The notes: a model not told the origin generated them from the sequence alone. A stretch of DNA of 10,574 nucleotides from Puniceicoccales bacterium (GCA_031269795.1 JAISYR010000026.1:1-10574), one strand, 5' to 3'; positions 1,210-10,574 are shown, counted from the stretch's first letter. A program made the numbers and translations.

Positions 1210-2259
1210 CTACTCATTGTCAAACCAAATTGATAGATCCTGTAAAACTGTCCCCGTGCCATTGGCAACTGCACTGAGAGGATCGCTGGAAACGATAACC
1301 GGAAGCCCTGTCTCCTCGGACATCAAAATGTCCAAATTTTTTAACATTGCTCCCCCCCCCGCAAGCACTATGCCGCGATCGACCAAATCCGATGATAGCT
1401 CCGGAGGACATTGTTCTAAAACACCCTTGGCTGCATTTACAATAGCCACAACCGCGTCTTTCAGTGCCATTCTAATTTCACTGGAATTAATGGTAATAGT
1501 TTTCGGAAGCCCCACAACTGCATCTCGACCTTTTATTGACATCGAAAGCTCCGTATCCAATGGTGAAGCTGAACCGATCTTCATCTTCAGTTCCTCTGCG
1601 GTACGCTCACCAATTATTAAATTATATTCACGTTTGACATAGTCGATTATGTTACGGTCCATTTCGTCACCCCCAATGCGAATACTACGTGCCAAAACCA
1701 CCCCATTTAGGGACAAAACAGCAATCTCCGTTGTTCCTCCTCCGATATCCACTATCATGTTGGCAGCTGGTTCATCAATGGGCAGACCAACCCCTATCGC
1801 CGCTGCCATTGGTTCTTGAATCAATAATACGTCGCGGGCTCCCGCATGGATAGCCGCTTCTTTTACAGCCCGTTTCTCCACCTCCGTTATGCCGGATGGA
1901 ACGGCAATGATGACCCGAGGGGGAACCAATCGCACTGAACTGGACACTTTGCTAATAAAATATCGCAGCATTGCCTCCGTCACCTCGAAATCGGCAATGA
2001 CACCGTCCTTCATGGGACGTAGTGTTATGATGCTTCCCGGTGTACGCCCTAACATTTTTCGAGCTTCTAACCCAACGGCACGTACGCGCCGTGAAGTTGC
2101 ATAAATTGCGACGACACTAGGCTCCCGTAGAACGATTCCTTTGTCACGGACAAAAACTAAAGTATTTGCCGTACCAAGATCGATCCCAATATCATGGGCC
2201 CAAAGGCCAAAGAAATTGGTAAAAAAGTTTGCTATTTTACTCCGAAAACTAGACACCAT
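1210..2259 (-). CDS. mreB: Rod-shape-determining actin homologue MreB
   Basis: 349-aa ORF with the actin-fold motifs IGIDLGTANTLV, DIGGGTTEIAV and LAGGGAML, and a typical MreB length. Confidence 0.95.
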   Translation of the reverse strand: MVSSFRSKIANFFTNFFGLWAHDIGIDLGTANTLVFVRDKGIVLREPSVVAIYATSRRVRAVGLEARKMLGRTPGSIITLRPMKDGVIADFEVTEAMLRYFISKVSSSVRLVPPRVIIAVPSGITEVEKRAVKEAAIHAGARDVLLIQEPMAAAIGVGLPIDEPAANMIVDIGGGTTEIAVLSLNGVVLARSIRIGGDEMDRNIIDYVKREYNLIIGERTAEELKMKIGSASPLDTELSMSIKGRDAVVGLPKTITINSSEIRMALKDAVVAIVNAAKGVLEQCPPELSSDLVDRGIVLAGGGAMLKNLDILMSEETGLPVIVSSDPLSAVANGTGTVLQDLSIWFDNE

Positions 2260-2307
2260 TTACTATACCTTACCGAGAAAAAGAAATCAATATTAACTTG
2301 CAAGAAA

Positions 2308-2316
2308 AATATACCA
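2308..2316 (-). promoter_or_regulatory. Possible extended -10 element (TGGTATATT on the minus strand) upstream of mreB
   Basis: The reverse complement of 2308-2316 is TGGTATATT (TGn + TATATT). It lies about 50 nt upstream of the mreB ATG in the 87-bp intergenic gap. There is no convincing -35. Sequence pattern only. Confidence 0.25.
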
Positions 2317-2346
2317 TTTAACTGAATGTCCTGGTAGAATACATAC

Positions 2347-2991
2347 CTACCCAATTGCTTTTTCGGTACCTAGAACCCTTTTTACCTGTCCATTGATTAC
2401 CATTGAATTTTTGGGTAAAATGGTTCCCGGATTAATCACTGAATTGCAGGAAATTTCGGAATAATCACCGATGATTGCTCCGATTTTTTTCATACCCGTT
2501 TCCACTCGTTCCCCCTTATAATGTATGACAATATTTTTCCTATCCAGCCTCAAATTCGCCAAAATTACACCGGCTCCAAGATGTACAAAATTTCCCAGAA
2601 CAGAGTCTCCGACATAGTTAAAATGTGGCACCTGTATGTTGTGCAAAAGTACGGAATTTTTTAATTCACAGGAATTTCCAATTAGACAATTTTTGCCGAT
2701 AATTACATTTTCCCTCACATAGGCAAATGGGCGAATGTTAGTCCCTTCATCGATGTAAGCGGGGCCTTCTATGACACAAACCGGTGGTAGTTGCACCGAT
2801 TCGTGTATGAAGACATCTTTCCCGACGTAGCATCCCGGAGGGATATTTCGTTTGGTTCCCCTGGACACACCGAGCATATCCAAAATGGCAAAATTTATCT
2901 TCCTTAGCCAGAGGACAGGATCCTCATCCAACCCAAAATGTTCGACAAACTTTCCCGATTCACCTACTTCAAAAAACTCCCGTGCTATCAT
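2347..2991 (-). CDS. Hexapeptide-repeat (left-handed beta-helix) transferase-like protein, resembling the GlmU C-terminal domain or a sugar-nucleotidyltransferase tail
   Basis: 214-aa ORF. It has repeated [LIV]-G-x-x-x-x hexads ([64 protein letters not shown]). Its ATG overlaps the dnaJ stop codon (ATGA at 2988-2991). No N-terminal nucleotidyltransferase domain is present. Confidence 0.6.
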
Positions 2992-4118
2992 AGTGATTCA
3001 AACTTTTCTTTAAACCTTTGAAAAAAACCACTGCTTTTTATGTTACATAACTTTCCGAATTCTTGCAATTTTTCCTTCTGTTCTCGGGATAATTTTGTAG
3101 GGACGTCAATGGTAATTTTTACGTATTGGTTACCTCGATCCCCTGGACGATTTAGATCTGGCATGCCATGTCCCCTAATGCGAAACATTGTTTCCGATTG
3201 CGTTCCGGCTGGAATTTTGAGATTTGCCTGACCATCGATGGTTTCGACCTCTATTTCTCCACCAAGAACTGCTATGGTAAATGGAATTTTCTGGGTACAG
3301 TATAGGTCGCTCTCATGGCGTTCGAAACGTTTATTTTCTATGACATAGATTGCTACGTATAGATCGCCATTGGGCCCACCGTTTGCTCCCGCTTCCCCCA
3401 TACTTTTCATCCGTAAATTGGCCCCATCAAATATCCCCGCGGGGATTTTAACTTTCGTTGTACATGATTCCATTACTCGACCGGTTCCTCTGCAATTGTG
3501 GCACGGGGTTTCAATCTTCGTCCCGACACCATGGCAGTCGGGACAAGTTTGCTGCATGCTAAAAAAACCCTGGCGCATGGAAAACACACCTGTTCCTCCA
3601 CAGGTCTTGCAGATGACTTTTTTCGATCCAGGGGCAGCCCCACTGCCGCTACACTTGGCACATGTTATATGTTTACTATATTTTATGGTTTTTTCTGTGC
3701 CATAAAAAGCCTCCTCAAGCGTTATTTTTAAATTATAACGTAAATCGCTCCCCGCCTGTCTCCTTGATTCATTGGAAGAACCACGGCGACCAAACCCAAA
3801 CAAATCATCGAAGCCACTTCCCCCAAACACATCGCGAAATACATCGAAGGGGTCATGTACCCCCGATCCCCATCCGGCCTGTGCCCTTCCGTGTTCAAAA
3901 GCACCATGTCCATATCTATCATAGGCAGCTCGTTTGTCACCATCTCCCAGAACCTCATATGCTTCGGCAACTTCTTTAAACTTTTCCTCGGCGACCTTAT
4001 CCCCTGGATTCTTATCCGGGTGATATTTCACCGCCATCCTACGATAGGCCCTCTTAATATCTTCCTCGGAAGCATTTTTTGACACTCCAAGGACATCGTA
4101 ATAGTCAGCTTTTCCCAT
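2988..4118 (-). CDS. dnaJ: Molecular chaperone DnaJ (Hsp40, type I)
   Basis: 376 aa. It has a J-domain with HPD (YHPDKNPGD), a G/F-rich linker ([12 protein letters not shown]), and four CxxCxGxG zinc-finger repeats ([32 protein letters not shown]). Confidence 0.95.
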
Positions 4119-4120
4119 TT

Positions 4121-4738
4121 TTACTTTGATTCTTTACTTTGCTCTTCACGATATGAAACCGTTACTACGGCCGGGCGAAGTAGCCTATCATTGAGTTTAT
4201 AACCCTTTCTGTCAACGGAAATAACGGTATCATTTTCTTTCCCATTATCCACCACCCGCCGTACGCATTCGTGGAAGTGCATGTCAAATTTTTCATTCAA
4301 TGGGAAAATTTCCTGGACACCATGGGCAGCCAGTAAACTTTTAAAGCTCGCAAAAATCATTTTAAATCCATCGACGATTTTATCACTTCCGTGCTGGTCA
4401 GCGGCAGCCAGTCCGAGTTCGAAGTTATCCAAAATGGGCAATAAACTTTCCAAAATGCCCGCGATGGCATTGTTCCGTACCTCAAAAAAATCCTTCTGGG
4501 TCCGTTTTTTATAATTTTCAAAATCAGCCAACGCCCGTAACATAGAATCTTTGTAATTATCCGCTTCCTTTTGCTTGTCTGCCAGTTGATTTTTTAAATC
4601 TTGCACAGCATCGTCCAACTTTCTGTCCGGATCCCCAACGTTTGTCTTTTGTTTTCCGACATTTTGGGTACCGTCCTCTTCCCCAGGATGATTACTTGGC
4701 TGTTCATGTCCTCTTTCCGACGAAGATTTTTTTGCCAT
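4121..4738 (-). CDS. grpE: Nucleotide exchange factor GrpE
   Basis: It carries the GrpE signature [13 protein letters not shown] and a C-terminal beta-domain ([20 protein letters not shown]). I prefer the start MAKKSSSE at 4738 over the track's 4786. The extra 16 residues (MVDGVWYGIIFASHVC) are hydrophobic and atypical for GrpE, and they overlap a -10-like element. The stop lies 2 bp before the dnaJ ATG. Confidence 0.88.
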
Positions 4739-4766: not shown

Positions 4767-4852
4767 TACCATACGCCATCAACCATCTAAAAGGCACCAT
4801 AGGCAAAACAAAAATTTACTCTGTGCTTGGTTAAAGGTCTACCATGTACGCA

Positions 4853-5806
4853 CTATATAATGCGTAGGGCATGGGCCATAACATCTTCAACGCCAATGGA
4901 GGATAATTTTTTGTCCCTAGCTTGAAGTACCACATTGCGTTCCGAATCAATGGGATAGGGAGCAAACCTTTTGGGATCCGTCGATCCGAACAGTGCAATG
5001 ACGGGAGTCGATAATGCTGCTGCCAAATGTATGGGGGCACTGTCATTGGCAATCACCAGCGTAGAATTCTGTACCAAATAGATGAGATCATCCATCGACG
5101 TTCGCGCAGATAGGTTATAGACATTTAACAACGTAGATGGCACATTAATCCATCGCTGTGCTAGAACAACAATTCGCATGGTGGGCAATTTTTCTCCCAA
5201 TGCCTCTGCCAACGAATTAAAATATGGCCATTCCTTTTTTTTCCGCCTGCTTTCTGGAAATAGCAAAATCAGTTTGCATTTCTCATGCCTATCGTTGAAA
5301 AAAATGTCCTTTGCCATGCTGCTTGGGGATGTTAAAAATTTTAATTCCCCTTGTAGTTTCGCTTCTAGGCCTAGTTCTGGCAAAAATTGCAACAAAATAT
5401 CTATGGCATGTCGTTTCTCCACCTGGGGAAGTGGAATTTTTCTATTGTATGCCATCCACGAAAACTCCCTGGCATCCGATCGGCCAACTTTTCTGTCAGA
5501 GCATGAAAAATATGTTATTATGCCACTGCGTGCTAGACCTTGCATGTCGAAAACATAGTCATAATGCTGTTTTCTAATCTTCGACATGAGATTGATAAAT
5601 TTTTGAAGACCCTGACCCCGGTAAAATACGAAAATTTTATCGACCAATCTGGAAGATTTCACCACATCAATGAAACAGTCTCGCACCACCCAATCGATTG
5701 ATATATTTGACAGGCACTTTTTTATGGTCGCAGCTATTTGTAACCCATGGATGATATCACCCAGGCTGGACGGTTTTACTATCAGAATGTTTATCTGCTG
5801 CGACAT
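4853..5806 (-). CDS. Glycosyltransferase family 9 (ADP-heptose:LPS heptosyltransferase-like)
   Basis: 317 aa. The N-terminus ILIVKPSSLGDIIHGLQIA and the C-terminal motif VIANDSAPIHLAAALSTPVIALFGSTDP are typical of the GT9 RfaC/RfaF family. Which heptosyltransferase it is cannot be told from sequence alone. Confidence 0.85.
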   Translation of the reverse strand: MSQQINILIVKPSSLGDIIHGLQIAATIKKCLSNISIDWVVRDCFIDVVKSSRLVDKIFVFYRGQGLQKFINLMSKIRKQHYDYVFDMQGLARSGIITYFSCSDRKVGRSDAREFSWMAYNRKIPLPQVEKRHAIDILLQFLPELGLEAKLQGELKFLTSPSSMAKDIFFNDRHEKCKLILLFPESRRKKKEWPYFNSLAEALGEKLPTMRIVVLAQRWINVPSTLLNVYNLSARTSMDDLIYLVQNSTLVIANDSAPIHLAAALSTPVIALFGSTDPKRFAPYPIDSERNVVLQARDKKLSSIGVEDVMAHALRII

Positions 5807-5814
5807 GGATCACT

Positions 5815-6801
5815 CTATTCCGACTTTAATGAGCGATTAAGCAGACCTTCTATGCACTTTTGGAGGGGTACGTTTAGGTATAGGGCAGAATAAATTGCTG
5901 ATATTATCGGGGCATTTATGTTCTTTTTTTCGCAAATGAGATGGAAGGCTTTTACGGTTTTATATCCTTCAACGACAGCCTTTTGGGTCGCAAAAATTTC
6001 ATCCACGGTCTCTCCCTTTCCTAACCTTTCACCAAATGTACGATTTCTACTCCATTCTCCCATACACGTGGCAATGAAATCGCCAAATCCACTCAAGCCA
6101 TAAAAAGTTTCCGTTTGTCCTCCAAGGGCGGTACCGATTGTCACCAATTCTTTCAATGCTCTGGTTAAATAGGCAGCCTTAGCATTGTCACCAAACCCTA
6201 GGCCATCGCAGATACCTGCCCCAATCGCATATACATTTTTTAGGCATCCCCCCAATTCGGCTCCTTTTACATCTCTACCGCTATAAATTCGTACCCGTTC
6301 AGAACTTAATGCTTTTTGTACCTCGTAGATATTTTTCGAGTTCGTGGCTAAAACCATGGCAGCATGTTTTCCTTCCGCTACTTCCTTCGCATTTGTTGGA
6401 CCAGCAAGCACACCATACTCGAAATTCGGCAACATTCTCTCAATTAAATCGGAAGCCGTTTCCGAATTTTCATTCTGTATACCTTTGCACAGCGAAACAA
6501 GCAGAGGAAGCTTTTTTACACCTTCCGATGCCCGGCCCAAGCTCAGACAGAGATCTTCCATTCCCACCGCTGGGCATGCTAAAAATGCCAATTCCGAATT
6601 TTGCACATTGATAGCCGTGGTTATGTTTATGCCATCTGGAAATTTGATCCCGGGAAGAAAGTCAACGTTCTCTCGGAATTTTGCCATCTTATTTGCCTGT
6701 TCCTCAAACTTAGGAATCAAAATAACGTCATGGCCGATTGCTCTACAGTAGCAAGCCATGGCTGTTCCCCAGGCTCCAGCACCAAATATTGAAATCTTCA
6801 T
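5815..6801 (-). CDS. gpsA: NAD(P)H-dependent glycerol-3-phosphate dehydrogenase
   Basis: 328 aa. It has a Rossmann motif KISIFGAGAWGTAMA and the GpsA motifs GCLKNVYAIGAGICDGLGFGDNAKAA and SRNRTFGERLGKG. Confidence 0.93.
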   Translation of the reverse strand: MKISIFGAGAWGTAMACYCRAIGHDVILIPKFEEQANKMAKFRENVDFLPGIKFPDGINITTAINVQNSELAFLACPAVGMEDLCLSLGRASEGVKKLPLLVSLCKGIQNENSETASDLIERMLPNFEYGVLAGPTNAKEVAEGKHAAMVLATNSKNIYEVQKALSSERVRIYSGRDVKGAELGGCLKNVYAIGAGICDGLGFGDNAKAAYLTRALKELVTIGTALGGQTETFYGLSGFGDFIATCMGEWSRNRTFGERLGKGETVDEIFATQKAVVEGYKTVKAFHLICEKKNINAPIISAIYSALYLNVPLQKCIEGLLNRSLKSE

Positions 6802-6809
6802 ACTAACAT

Positions 6810-7583
6810 TTATTTAATTTCTATTCCACCACGTCCAGGCTGAGGATATAGTTGCTCCCCATTTGCCTGCTTAATTAGTAAAAACTCACCATTGTCGTAG
6901 AAAACTTGGACGGGCCCCGAATGGGCTATTTTTTTCACCTCACCCGATTCCAAGCTCCCCGCAAAAATCTTCTCTCCGGATGCTTTGGAACGCACGACAA
7001 CTTTCACATTCCCCGTTGGAATCAATGATAGCACAGATTGATTTGCTATGTCCAGTACTTTATCAGCTCGCTTGGATTGAATTTTGGCATATTCTGTTTT
7101 AGGGAAGAATGCTTTGGAAAAAACTACAAATAGCAAGATAACGACCACCAAGCCGGATACTATCTTTACAAAATGCCTGTGTTGAACAATGGTTTTAATT
7201 TTTTCCATAAGCCGTTTAAATTTTTTTGAAAAGGGAATTGTATCGTTTATTCCCAAATCCGACCCGTCTTCCCGCTCTTTTTCATTGGAAATTAGTGTAT
7301 TGTAGGCAACCTTTTTAACACATCTGGAATGTAAAACTTCAAATTCCTCTATGGGACAACTTGCCATGACAGCATCGACGTCCAATTTCAAATACCTAGC
7401 GTAAATTTTGATAAATCCACGCAGATAAATATCGGGCAAATTAAAATCGTACTCTCCACTTTCTATGCCAGCAAGATATTCCAATTTGATCCTCGTTTCT
7501 TCGGAAGCCTTTGCCAATGTAACTCCCCGCACATCCCTAGCCTCGATAAACTGTTGCCCAAATTCCTTAGTCATGGATTTCAC
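6810..7583 (-). CDS. rodZ: RodZ-like cytoskeleton protein (N-terminal HTH, single TM segment, C-terminal DUF4115-like domain)
   Basis: 257 aa. The HTH region is FGQQFIEARDVRGVTLAKASEETRIKLEYLAGIESGEY, followed by LPDIYLRGFIKIYARYLKLD. The TM segment is IVSGLVVVILLFVVF. The C-terminal beta-rich domain reads VKVVVRSKASGEKIFAGSLESGEVKKI. The track's start at 7583 is GTG; an in-frame ATG at 7574 (MTKEF...) is an equally plausible start. Confidence 0.65.
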   Translation of the reverse strand: MKSMTKEFGQQFIEARDVRGVTLAKASEETRIKLEYLAGIESGEYDFNLPDIYLRGFIKIYARYLKLDVDAVMASCPIEEFEVLHSRCVKKVAYNTLISNEKEREDGSDLGINDTIPFSKKFKRLMEKIKTIVQHRHFVKIVSGLVVVILLFVVFSKAFFPKTEYAKIQSKRADKVLDIANQSVLSLIPTGNVKVVVRSKASGEKIFAGSLESGEVKKIAHSGPVQVFYDNGEFLLIKQANGEQLYPQPGRGGIEIK

Positions 7584-7759
7584 AATACCCCTATGAAAAA
7601 TTTTTTCAACGGCAATCTAAAGTTTTTTGATTGGTTAAAATATGGAAAGCCTTCCCGGGGGATTCATAATAATGACAAAAATTTCTACAAAAAATTTTTT
7701 CCGGGTAGATAAAGTTAGGATTGTTTTACGACGATCTCTTCACTAAAAGTTTCTACGTA

Positions 7760-7768
7760 TTGTCCACA
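7760..7768 (+). promoter_or_regulatory. DnaA-box-like 9-mer TTGTCCACA
   Basis: One mismatch to the TTATNCACA consensus. It forms a converging pair with the box at 7775-7783, 6 bp away. Confidence 0.5.
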
Positions 7769-7774
7769 TTGTAA

Positions 7775-7783
7775 TGTGAATAA
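7775..7783 (-). promoter_or_regulatory. DnaA box TTATTCACA (minus strand)
   Basis: The plus strand reads TGTGAATAA. Its reverse complement matches TTATNCACA exactly. Confidence 0.55.
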
Positions 7784-7996
7784 CTTGTTAATTTCTTCTT
7801 CTTGATTTTCTTTCGTTCAAGCGAATCATAGCAATGATGTTTAAATTTTGTTGGGAATTGGTTCACGGACTTTACCGATTAGGTCGGCATAAACAAAAGG
7901 GTTTAACCCTAAGCCTAGACAAAAATATGTCAAAAATTAATTTTGCTTTTCTCAAAAAAAGTTTTAGCACGGGGCTAAAATTTATGCTCATAATTC

Positions 7997-8005
7997 TGTG
8001 AACAA
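7997..8005 (-). promoter_or_regulatory. DnaA-box-like 9-mer TTGTTCACA (minus strand), 20 bp upstream of the dnaA ATG
   Basis: The plus strand reads TGTGAACAA. Its reverse complement has one mismatch to TTATNCACA. The position fits dnaA autoregulation. Confidence 0.45.
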
Positions 8006-8024
8006 CTTTTAATCTCTTCTTAAC

Positions 8025-9398
8025 ATGAATGCAAATCTTACCATAAATTCTACACTCTGGAAAGTGGTTCGTGATAATCTTAAGGAGGTATTTCCCCACG
8101 ATGTTTTTCGTTCATGGTTCGAGCCATTATATGTTGTCGAAGAAACACCAAATGCTATTGTTTTCGGGGTAATGAATGATTTCACCGCCATTTGGTTACA
8201 GGAAAATTACCTGGACATAATGGCAAAAAATTTATGCCGCGAAGCGGGACATGATGTGAAAATTTCATTTCGTGTACAGGATAGAGAACCGCAAGCTCCT
8301 CAAGAAATTTCCAGCATAGCTCAAAAACAGAAAAAAAGTGCGGGGGGGGATCAAAACAAGGGGATAACTCCCATTACACTAAACAAACAAAATACATTTG
8401 AAAACTTCGTCGTAGGGTCTGGAAATCAAATGGCTCACGCGGCCTGTACAGCCGTTGTCAACACCCCCGGTCGTGCTTACAATCCGCTGTTTCTATATGG
8501 CGACACGGGTCTTGGAAAGACCCACCTAATGCAAGCAGTGGCGCACAGTGTTTTGAGTAAGTATAAAAAGATAAATGTGGTTTACACGTCCACCGAAAAG
8601 TTTACCAACGAGTTCATTTCCGAGCTGCAAAAAAATAACCTAGGTGCGTTTAGGAAAAAGTATCGCTACGTGGATGTTTTATTGATCGACGATGTACATT
8701 TTCTATCTGGGAAAGAGCGCATACAGGAAGAATTTTTCCATACTTTTAATGAATTATTCGAAGCACAGAAGCAAATTATTCTAAGCAGCGATCGTCCAGC
8801 ATCCGAAATAGCCAGGCTAGAAAATCGATTGGTTTCCCGGTTTCAGTGGGGATTGGTGGCTGATATCCAGGCCCCAGATTTGGAAACAAGGATTGCAATC
8901 CTTGATAAGAAAGCGACTGCCATGCACCTCGAACTTTCCCATGATATAATTGAGACATTGGCCAACAGGGTCTCAAGCAATGTGCGAAAGCTGGAAGGAG
9001 CTTTGAATAGAATCGCCAGCTACCTTTCAATCACCAAATCCCCAATTAATTCCGAATTGATGGAACATATTCTGCATGATTTATTCTTCGAAGAAAAAAC
9101 CATCGAGATCACCATAGAAGCGGTCCAACGAAAAGTTTGTGCCCATTACAAATTATCCCTCGACGATATTACGGGGAAAAAGCGGCCGGCTAATATTGCA
9201 TTTCCCAGACAAATTGCGATGTACCTGTGTAGACTGATGACAAACCGTTCATTGGTGGACATCGGGGGCGAGTTTGGAGGGAGGGATCACGGTACGGTCA
9301 TCCATGCGTGTAAAACCGTCGAAAACGCAATGGAGCATGATATTTCCATAAAGCATACCATAGAAAATTTACAAAAAATGATCAAGCAAATCCCCTAG
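8025..9398 (+). CDS. dnaA: Chromosomal replication initiator protein DnaA
   Basis: 457 aa. It has Walker A GDTGLGKTHL, Walker B LLIDDVHFL, sensor and box VII regions (SSDRPASEI, RLVSRFQWGLVADIQAPDLETRIAIL), and a domain IV DNA-binding helix (FPRQIAMYLCRLMTNRSLVDIGGEFGGRDHGTVIHACKTVE). Confidence 0.96.
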   Translation: MNANLTINSTLWKVVRDNLKEVFPHDVFRSWFEPLYVVEETPNAIVFGVMNDFTAIWLQENYLDIMAKNLCREAGHDVKISFRVQDREPQAPQEISSIAQKQKKSAGGDQNKGITPITLNKQNTFENFVVGSGNQMAHAACTAVVNTPGRAYNPLFLYGDTGLGKTHLMQAVAHSVLSKYKKINVVYTSTEKFTNEFISELQKNNLGAFRKKYRYVDVLLIDDVHFLSGKERIQEEFFHTFNELFEAQKQIILSSDRPASEIARLENRLVSRFQWGLVADIQAPDLETRIAILDKKATAMHLELSHDIIETLANRVSSNVRKLEGALNRIASYLSITKSPINSELMEHILHDLFFEEKTIEITIEAVQRKVCAHYKLSLDDITGKKRPANIAFPRQIAMYLCRLMTNRSLVDIGGEFGGRDHGTVIHACKTVENAMEHDISIKHTIENLQKMIKQIP

Positions 9399-9550: not shown

Positions 9551-9579
9551 TTGTAAAAAGTTGCAAAAGTAGCTATCAT
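9551..9579 (+). promoter_or_regulatory. Possible sigma-70-type promoter (TTGTAA, 17-bp spacer, TATCAT) just upstream of the unlisted ORF
   Basis: The -35-like TTGTAA is at 9551-9556, the spacer is exactly 17 bp, and the -10-like TATCAT is at 9574-9579. The predicted transcription start, about 9586, is only about 2 nt before ATG 9588. Pattern only. Confidence 0.3.
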
Positions 9580-9587
9580 AGGGGAGG

Positions 9588-10574
9588 ATGAATACTTCTC
9601 TCTCACAGAAAAATGAAATCGCAAGCCTACGCAACCAGGCTAGAAGCTCCGGAACCTCTAAAACGGCAACGATACAAATAGATGGCCGTTGGTGTACGGT
9701 AACAGCGAAACCCATTGGCAACTGGCCATTTAAAAGAACTAACATCAAAATTGAGTCTAGAACTTTGGACAACCGAACATGCATAGTAAATTTTACCTAC
9801 GATAGGGGACGAGGGGTTGCCCAAGGACTTCGATCGTTCACAGAAACAATTAACAAATCCGACCAAGAATTTATTGCCGAAACAACAATACCCCAAGTGG
9901 GCAGTAGTTGCTCCAAAGAGCAAGTACTCTCAACCATTTCCTCGAAGATTGCTGGTTACACTCAACCAATGCCCATCAGCTCTATGAGTCATCATGCTCC
10001 GAGAATCTGGGGATTTTTGAGGAATGTAGAAAATTTTGTGCTACAAAATGCTCTGTCTGCGGATGAAATATCAAAGCTGAAACAAGAATTACGGCACCTA
10101 AGCAGTACACCGATTATACAATATCCGCAAAGACCGAATGACCTTTTTTCAATAAATGAATGCGATGGCGATCCCCACTGTCGTGACATTGCTCTTCAGG
10201 CGGAATCCCTTGAAATACTGCTCGATGCCAAGGCATGCGGTCAGGTTAGGCTGGAAAGAAATATCCCTCCTGCGGTAAAAGTACTGGGTAGAGGGAGTTC
10301 TAATACCGTATGCCTTGCCCATAGGAAACCGGGGGGAGACAGAAGGGAGGCGTCTGAGCCGATAGCATTGAAACCATGCATCCAGTCTAAACAAGAAAGA
10401 AATCCGGCTGGGTTTGTACAAACTATCAGAAGGATGAAAACAATGATTGGAATAGCAAGCGGGAGCTATAGGCGTAACCAAGCAACCTCAATGGTCCAGC
10501 GTATGTTTGAGCATATTGGCAAAACAGAAAAAATAACCGTCCCCCACGTAATAGCCACCGTTTCCGCAGCGGAA
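9588..10574 (+). CDS. Partial CDS (N-terminal 329 codons, open at the window end): hypothetical protein whose C-terminal part resembles the N-lobe of a PI3/PI4-kinase-superfamily (type II PI4K-like) or atypical kinase domain
   Basis: It is absent from the supplied track, presumably because no stop codon is reached. I translated it codon by codon. There is a stop (TAG) at 9579-9581 and an ATG at 9588, then 329 sense codons to 10574. The sequence begins MNTSLSQKNEIASLRNQARSSG and ends ESLEILLDAKACGQVRLERNIPPAVKVLGRGSSNTVCLAHRKPGGDRREASEPIALKPCIQSKQERNPAGFVQTIRRMKTMIGIASGSYRRNQATSMVQRMFEHIGKTEKITVPHVIATVSAAE. A chance open frame of this length in roughly 43% GC DNA is very unlikely (less than about 1e-6). 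The functional call is motif-based and tentative. Confidence 0.8.
   Translation, partial: MNTSLSQKNEIASLRNQARSSGTSKTATIQIDGRWCTVTAKPIGNWPFKRTNIKIESRTLDNRTCIVNFTYDRGRGVAQGLRSFTETINKSDQEFIAETTIPQVGSSCSKEQVLSTISSKIAGYTQPMPISSMSHHAPRIWGFLRNVENFVLQNALSADEISKLKQELRHLSSTPIIQYPQRPNDLFSINECDGDPHCRDIALQAESLEILLDAKACGQVRLERNIPPAVKVLGRGSSNTVCLAHRKPGGDRREASEPIALKPCIQSKQERNPAGFVQTIRRMKTMIGIASGSYRRNQATSMVQRMFEHIGKTEKITVPHVIATVSAAE

Follow-up and report, generated by a model that had tools for sequence, protein, structure and literature searches.

A truncated gene beside dnaA in a Puniceicoccales bacterium encodes a member of a protein-kinase-like family and a candidate host-directed atypical kinase

A reading frame that stays open from shortly after dnaA to the end of a bacterial contig raises the question of whether it is a gene and, if so, what kind of protein it encodes. 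The frame lies at 9588-10574 on the plus strand of a contig of a Puniceicoccales bacterium (GCA_031269795.1 JAISYR010000026.1:1-10574), which was analysed as a single stretch of 10,574 nucleotides, referred to here as the window. An initial annotation had read kinase motifs in this frame and compared them with the PI3_PI4_kinase domain (PF00454) of type II PI4-kinases. Translation from ATG 9588 gives 329 codons, stop-free to the last base of the contig (10574), and this frame is confirmed by 24 homologues, the starts of which coincide with the same ATG. Since stops occur in the same frame immediately 5' of it, ATG 9588 is the earliest possible start. The frame was missing from the listing of open reading frames (ORFs), where only short antisense ORFs were shown, because ORFs running off the end are skipped there. 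The 329-residue product is identical to the GenBank entry 'hypothetical protein LBS22_04395, partial', encoded on a contig of 10,575 bp from a Puniceicoccales metagenome-assembled genome (MAG). The region is the 5' portion of a real gene cut by the contig end, and as the window is essentially the entire contig, the truncation was caused by assembly. A 40-mer taken from the end of the contig had no exact match among the metagenome contigs of the Joint Genome Institute (JGI), and no longer contig was found.

The sources of the homologues (38-61% identity; E 1e-5 to 1e-110) are without exception Puniceicoccales MAGs or metagenome contigs of the JGI; complete homologues are about 450-560 amino acids (aa) long. 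Compared with them, the complete product of the window gene is predicted to have two domains and a length of about 520-540 aa. The following parts of it are present in the window, as seen in the sequence, in the alignments and in a model made with AlphaFold2 (AF2):

9588-10574, plus strand: 5' part of the coding sequence, 329 codons, about 61% of it (open frame and homologues)
9588-10232, plus strand: N-terminal domain, from residue 1 to about residue 215 (seen in the AF2 model)
10233-10574, plus strand: kinase N-lobe, residues about 216-329, with beta1, glycine-rich loop (G-loop), beta2, beta3 (bearing the Lys), C-helix and beta4 (AF2 secondary structure)
10284-10310, plus strand: glycine-rich loop LGRGSSNTV, at residues 233-241; both glycines (G234, G236) invariant in alignment A3; aligns with LGTGSFGRV of PKA
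10362-10376, plus strand: IALKP, residues 259-263, with Lys262 as the presumed ATP-binding beta3 lysine; K262 invariant in A3
10470-10490, plus strand: RRNQATS, residues 295-301, in the C-helix (SYRRNQAT); Arg-Asn pair conserved family-wide
10533-10550, plus strand: ITVPHV, residues 316-321, running into strand beta4 (alignment and model)

Past the end of the window, complete homologues continue with a hinge (IAMEMLxG), a helix (ETWMQxQDVLTGQ) and a catalytic loop (IDRHGxNVML), which is followed by PVAIDHDLSFPT and by a conserved helical C-terminal part (MPPVIDxxMY...ECGLTxxEIxAAMxRA). The motifs GQIDRHGxN and IDHD (AIDHDLSF), corresponding to a catalytic loop of PI3/PI4-kinase type and a metal-binding Asp, are kept in most members; the D-x-x-x-x-N loop and the Asp that had been predicted downstream are hence present in the complete relatives, and in relatives only. 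The AF2 model of P0002, a full-length homologue 61% identical to the window protein, has a mean predicted local distance difference test score (pLDDT) of 85.5 and a predicted template modelling score (pTM) of 0.84. In it the N-terminal domain is followed by beta1, the G-loop, beta2 and beta3 (LKP), then by the C-helix (SYRRNxAT), which is long, by strands beta4 and beta5, and by the hinge and the C-lobe, which is helical. This is the bilobal protein-kinase-like (PKL) fold, of which the window holds the N-lobe only. In a Foldseek comparison of this model with the PDB, 36 matches were obtained at E<=1e-3 and every one was a kinase (GRK1, FGFR, JAK2, SYK and others); PI4K type II-beta (PI4K2B) ranked third (E 2.6e-4). 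For the family, a PKL fold with an active site of PI3/PI4-kinase type is well supported, and the proposal of an uncharacterised bacterial family of atypical protein-kinase-like proteins was borne out.

When the 329 residues of the window were themselves modelled with AF2, pLDDT was >90 over most of residues 1-200, had fallen to the 70s-80s by residue 215 and was about 50 in the N-lobe, which is cut short. The N-terminal domain is composed, in order, of a helix, a four-stranded antiparallel sheet, a helical bundle, a beta-hairpin and a long helix ending in ESLEILLDAK. It had no Pfam match, and Foldseek against the PDB with this model returned nothing meaningful; the best E of 0.067 leaves the domain without a solved relative. 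The earlier remark that the roughly 210 N-terminal residues resemble nothing recognisable agrees with this, and judging by the model the domain is structurally novel. As for the N-lobe, its elements fall in register when the family is compared with PKA or PI4K2A in hhalign. The equivalent of Lys262 (K71) is invariant in the broad-family alignment A2 and aligns with K72 of PKA and with VFKP of PI4K2A, while the Arg and Asn of the C-helix are invariant in the near-family alignment A1 and at least 90% conserved in A3, the equivalent Arg (R105) being invariant in A2. The motifs quoted in the initial annotation are all there and in the order given, but several of the spacings had been miscounted. 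The actual layout is LEILLDA (208-214), x12, PP, x4, LGRGSSNTVCL (233-243), x15, IALKP (259-263), x6, ERNP, x1, GF, x18, RRNQATS (295-301), x14 and ITVPHV (316-321). The fragment itself matched nothing in Pfam, NCBIfam or PADLOC, and in the PDB (phmmer) it gave a chance match only (E 0.38).

As regards the kind of kinase, PF00454 proved to be the nearest family, as had been proposed. It was matched by 18 of the 32 family members at E<=0.01, and every other family by two members at most. The scores among homologues were 30.1 bits for P0009 and 14-24 bits for the others (gathering cut-off 27.1 bits), covering only the catalytic and activation loops at model positions of about 120-187. An exhaustive profile search extended the family to 491 cluster representatives at E<=1e-3, which beyond Puniceicoccales share GQxDRHxxN...(G/A)IDNDxxF. 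These occur in Prosthecodimorpha, Prosthecomicrobium, Pseudochelatococcus, Ottowia, Acidovorax, Variovorax, Polaromonas and Achromobacter. Two of them carry the UniRef name 'PI3K/PI4K catalytic domain-containing protein'. The clusters of distant matches that were looked up consisted mostly of unnamed metagenome proteins. Invariant across A2 are the beta3 Lys, the C-helix Arg, D-R-H..N and D.D, and distant relatives match PF00454 at 36-124 bits. The broad profile aligned with PI4K2A in hhalign at a Prob of 58%, a pairwise E of 1e-4 and a score of 38.9, compared with 14.2 +/- 2.0 (maximum 18.3) for 25 shuffles; under relaxed settings the alignment was collinear over the G-loop, VFKP, C-helix, DR..N and IDNG. 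The PI4K2A and PKA sequences used in these comparisons were checked against PDB chains 4hnd_A and 1atp_E. The near-family profile A1 gave nothing relevant in the PDB, and a repeated homologue search with A2 was dominated by near-family members and uninformative. Two unnamed metagenome giants, P0104 (1545 aa) and P0130 (2154 aa), each carry three PI3_PI4_kinase stretches (124 and 85 bits) and weak Fam20C matches; in P0104 a NUDIX domain and a weak match to HipA_2 are present too.

A genome scan located the near family at 15 loci in nine termite-gut MAGs, the isolate names and accessions of which (JAIRKQ...JAITIO) lie inside JAIRJQ-JAITXW, the range of a 48-metagenome termite-gut study. From its shared locus-tag style, the MAG of the window would be part of that set. 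That study reports its Opitutales families LL51 and UBA9783 from lower termites only, with genomes under 1.5 Mbp, and regards them as putative endosymbionts of gut flagellates (PMC11257099); the intranuclear 'Ca. Nucleococcus' is of the same lineage (PMC11257099; PMC8204192). Among MAGs, the near family was found in those of this study only. It appears to be specific to termite-gut Puniceicoccales (Opitutales in GTDB) that are putative flagellate endosymbionts, and the host association suspected for the organism is plausible. At least four copies are present in each of two MAGs, with tandem arrays of three copies in L013/L017 and of two each in L007 and L009, and frameshifted copies occur at L001/L005, L006 and L016. 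No conserved operon partner was found at the related loci, where copies are dispersed among unrelated housekeeping genes.

The N-terminal domain shows some variation of its own. In two adjacent ORFs at L015 (MAG Gx481_bin188), 1691-4654 (988 aa) and 4767-7265 (833 aa), the N-terminal sub-module is repeated three to five times in tandem, and the first ORF has no kinase domain. The N-terminal domain is thus shown to be a module in its own right that can be duplicated. P0066, P0070 and P0075 have repeats like these. In P0067 (1370 aa) and P0078 (789 aa), also from Puniceicoccales MAGs, a divergent kinase domain stands behind an HD-type phosphohydrolase domain, which in P0067 is also a marginal SidE_PDE match (24.7 bits; cut-off 25). 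An autotransporter (type V secretion) gene at 13558-15270 of L017 directly follows the three-gene array there, probably by coincidence.

The reading favoured here, with a probability of about 0.5, is that the gene encodes a host-directed atypical kinase in which a novel N-terminal domain precedes a divergent kinase domain of PI3/PI4 type; the leading candidate for its substrate would be a membrane phosphoinositide, and export is presumed. A host protein would be the main alternative substrate. In such an enzyme ATP would be bound between the two lobes, and its gamma-phosphate would be passed to a substrate hydroxyl by the Asp and Asn of the catalytic loop and the Asp of IDHD. The modular N-terminal domain, repeated in some paralogues, could target or regulate the enzyme, and the protein would exit the bacterium by a non-Sec route and act on a substrate in the host cell. 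The restriction to putative endosymbionts, the paralogues in small genomes, the arrays, pseudogenes, module shuffling and HD fusions all argue for an effector-like rather than a housekeeping role. Neither a signal peptide nor a transmembrane segment is present in the 329-residue product, which, like the want of a conserved operon partner, is counted among the effector-like traits. In distant relatives a membrane-localisation domain of toxins and effectors (PF11647) precedes the kinase, at 35.9 bits in P0197 (cut-off 35) and more weakly in P0200 and P0203. On the chromosome of Ottowia sp. VDI28 (L019, 10001-13409), a relative with a weak membrane-localisation domain and a kinase domain is followed by an unknown ORF of 193 aa and a CesT-family type III chaperone gene, an arrangement that suggests a type III effector locus.

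A number of observations weigh against this reading. Only one homologue (P0009) was seen over the PF00454 threshold, and the window fragment had no match to PF00454, although it lacks the region that the model covers. Searched with A2, the PDB gave FAM20A/B/C first (E 3e-4 to 6e-3), then mTOR/SMG1/DNA-PKcs (0.016-0.05) and PI4K2B at 0.29, all matches being confined to the catalytic-loop/DFG segment. In hhalign the broad profile scored higher with PKA (Prob 85%, score 47.1, 144 columns from the G-loop to the catalytic loop) than with PI4K2A, and the window N-lobe alone gave a spurious out-of-register match to PI4K2A (E 0.24), compared with only a 19-column G-loop match to PKA (E 0.003), neither of them being significant. 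Hallmarks of type II PI4Ks were not found, the loop being DRHGxN instead of DRGNDN and a Cys cluster between IALKP and SYRRN being absent. From these profiles the subfamily appears ambiguous, as FAM20, PIKK, PI4K2 and PKA all match weakly, and since FAM20, the PIKKs and PKA outscore PI4K2, a protein substrate is as defensible as a lipid. A specific affinity to type II PI4Ks, as suggested in the initial annotation, is not well supported, and its 'eukaryotic-like' origin and lipid-kinase activity are not supported as worded; the claimed collinearity stands for the family under relaxed settings but not for the window N-lobe by itself. It is possible on these grounds, though somewhat unlikely, that the protein is a protein (or glycan) kinase of FAM20/CotH/ePK-like kind acting on host or bacterial proteins, ePK standing for eukaryotic protein kinase. 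The ePK-like G-loop (LGxGxFNTV), weak PK_Tyr_Ser-Thr, Pkinase and CotH matches, and the fact that PIKKs, which are protein kinases, also have a DRHxxN loop would be consistent with it. However, PF00454 is by far the commonest Pfam match, the catalytic-loop Asn missing from FAM20 is kept here, and the membrane-localisation domain of relatives suits a membrane substrate better. The ePK families (PF00069/PF07714) are also matched below threshold only, Pkinase at 13.5 bits (cut-off 31.7; E 0.05) and PK_Tyr_Ser-Thr at 16.7 bits at most (cut-off 23.1), with DRH and IDH as motifs and no APE motif among the aligned sequences.

The catalytic half of the window gene lies beyond the contig end, and in its closest relatives the loop is altered to DRY (P0002 and P0005), DRN (P0008) or NRN/NRR (P0003 and P0011, with the catalytic Asp changed to Asn). 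These changes may mark a sub-clade of pseudokinases or of enzymes with changed chemistry, and this copy could be inactive. The frameshifted loci and the Ser in the window G-loop, where the family has Phe, point in the same direction. It nevertheless seems unlikely that this copy, and perhaps the closest clade too, is a pseudokinase or decaying paralogue without phosphotransfer, given that the 329 codons present are all intact, that Lys262 and the Arg-Asn pair are retained, that base composition is the same as in the neighbouring genes, and that most members have the full motif set. Type II PI4Ks (DRGNDN) moreover function without the loop His, so a change of His to Tyr or Asn need not inactivate the enzyme. 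As to export, neither a secretion system nor a chaperone or translocation signal came to light for the Puniceicoccales family. The membrane-localisation and CesT evidence comes from relatives only about 25% identical, and some members of the broad family come from free-living Proteobacteria. A cytoplasmic housekeeping or regulatory kinase acting on small molecules, HipA-like or APH-like and with no host link, would account for the missing signal peptide, for the free-living members, for the housekeeping surroundings with dnaA adjoining, and for the weak APH, ABC1, HipA_2 and thiamine-kinase matches of some members or relatives. It is improbable, however, as at least four paralogues in genomes reported under 1.5 Mbp, together with arrays, pseudogenes and N-terminal shuffling, would be unusual for housekeeping; besides, neither an operon partner nor an antitoxin-like one is present, other MAGs show no synteny with dnaA, and PADLOC gave no match. 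A HipA-like toxin-antitoxin function was rejected for want of a partner gene, and anti-phage defence was rejected as the near family had no match in PADLOC.

A wider and rather doubtful extension of the host-directed reading would be that verrucomicrobial flagellate endosymbionts, to whose lineage the intranuclear 'Candidatus Nucleococcus' belongs, export a large and rapidly evolving set of PI3/PI4-kinase-like enzymes, each with a targeting domain of a new kind, rewriting the phosphoinositide or phosphoprotein signalling of the protist, and that the proteobacterial GQxDRHxxN...IDND family consists of unrecognised effector kinases that are type III-delivered and membrane-targeted. Bacterial phosphoinositide kinases are key tools for the control of host membranes in Legionella, Francisella and Rickettsia. 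To our knowledge, nothing is known of host manipulation by bacterial endosymbionts of termite-gut flagellates, and we know of no effector kinases in Verrucomicrobiota. A lineage-restricted, multi-copy kinase family of PI3/PI4 type would offer a concrete, testable lead on how a host is manipulated in a symbiosis that is neither pathogenic nor culturable. The broad family that it exposed (491 cluster representatives with GQxDRHxxN...IDNDxxF) is neither named nor annotated in the databases that were searched. If the proteins are cytoplasmic or inactive, the finding shrinks to another orphan kinase-like family.

The gene is preceded by dnaA and by two sites that could be concerned with its expression:

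8025-9398, plus strand: dnaA, the upstream neighbour (Pfam Bac_DnaA 230.9 bits, Bac_DnaA_C, DnaA_N)
9551-9579, plus strand: promoter-like site TTGTAA-17-TATCAT, 9 bp ahead of the ATG (only a weak match to the consensus; 2 sites against 0.6 expected)
9583-9587, plus strand: GGAGG touching the ATG, Shine-Dalgarno-like with zero spacing (sequence reading)

The remaining genes of the window are all housekeeping genes by Pfam (MreB, hexapeptide transferase, DnaJ, GrpE, GT9 heptosyltransferase, GpsA and an HTH_25 protein). Neither dnaA nor any other window gene was present at any of the 16 related loci examined, so the adjacency of the kinase-like gene to dnaA is incidental. A horizontal-transfer island was rejected, since the GC content of the gene (0.451) and that at third codon positions (GC3, 0.410) match the values of its neighbours. 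Between two divergent gene blocks lies an AT-rich gap at 7584-8024 (GC about 0.35); the genes left of it are all read from the minus strand, and dnaA and the kinase-like gene are read from the plus strand. The GC skew changes there from negative to about zero or positive, and DnaA-box-like 9-mers occur at 7760-7768 (plus strand) and 7775-7783 (minus strand), such boxes being without enrichment across the window. The gap is probably oriC. After dnaA comes the kinase-like gene, instead of dnaN. The putative origin is adjoined by a gene for a 257-aa HTH_25 (RodZ-like) protein at 6810-7583 (minus strand), which together with MreB further left (1210-2259) represents ordinary cell-shape genes.

Among known systems, PF00454 and human PI4K2A (PDB 4hnd) share with the family the PKL fold, the beta3 Lys in a (V/A)(F/L)KP context, the D-R-x-x-x-N loop, the motif I-D-(N/H)-(G/D)-L-(A/S)-F-P and hhalign collinearity from the G-loop to the C-lobe helices. 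In contrast to PI4K2A, the family has no CCPCC palmitoylation insert, which in PI4K2A lies between beta3 and the C-helix, and its DRHGxN loop is that of PI3K/PIKK; it also differs in having Asn for the C-helix Glu and an extra, novel N-terminal domain. FAM20 is a metazoan-specific protein of the secretory pathway with a signal or anchor sequence, FAM20A/B/C including a Golgi casein kinase and a xylosylkinase. The GQxDRH...IDNDxxFG of the family aligns with GNMDRHHYE...LDNxxxFG of FAM20, as a local match only (E 3e-4), and fKP...RNlAT...vVP is collinear with FKPM...NAEIAAF...RVPP. The FAM20 loop (DRHHYE) lacks the Asn that the family keeps, and the near family had no Fam20C match (PF06702), such matches being found only in the giant distant relatives. 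The likeness to SCO1664 (TIGR03843), an actinobacterial PI3/4-kinase-like protein, that had been noted in the initial annotation holds in part: the broad family matches it weakly, at up to 35.1 bits over model positions 53-231 (cut-off 172.4), but the near family reaches 15 bits at most (P0009 15.2) and is not a member.

Known bacterial PI-kinase effectors include OpiA of Francisella and LegA5 (AnkK) of Legionella, Risk1 of Rickettsia, and LepB and MavQ of Legionella; they come from intracellular bacteria, have divergent PI3/PI4-kinase-like or atypical kinase domains, are delivered into the host and rewrite membrane phosphoinositides (PMC7298712; PMC9758233). In a survey of the Legionella pan-kinome, LepB and OpiA/AnkK clustered with FAM20/CotH (PMC9758233), and the weak matches of the present family fall in the same FAM20/CotH region of sequence space. 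LepB_N was not among the Pfam families reported for the homologues. With OpiA, LegA5, Risk1, LepB and MavQ the family is comparable, by description only, in its presumed lifestyle and effector-like genomics, whereas its bearers belong to the phylum Verrucomicrobiota and the host would be a termite-gut flagellate. Compared with these effectors, what is new here is a kinase domain barely detectable by existing models, joined to a novel N-terminal domain, in another phylum and with another kind of host.

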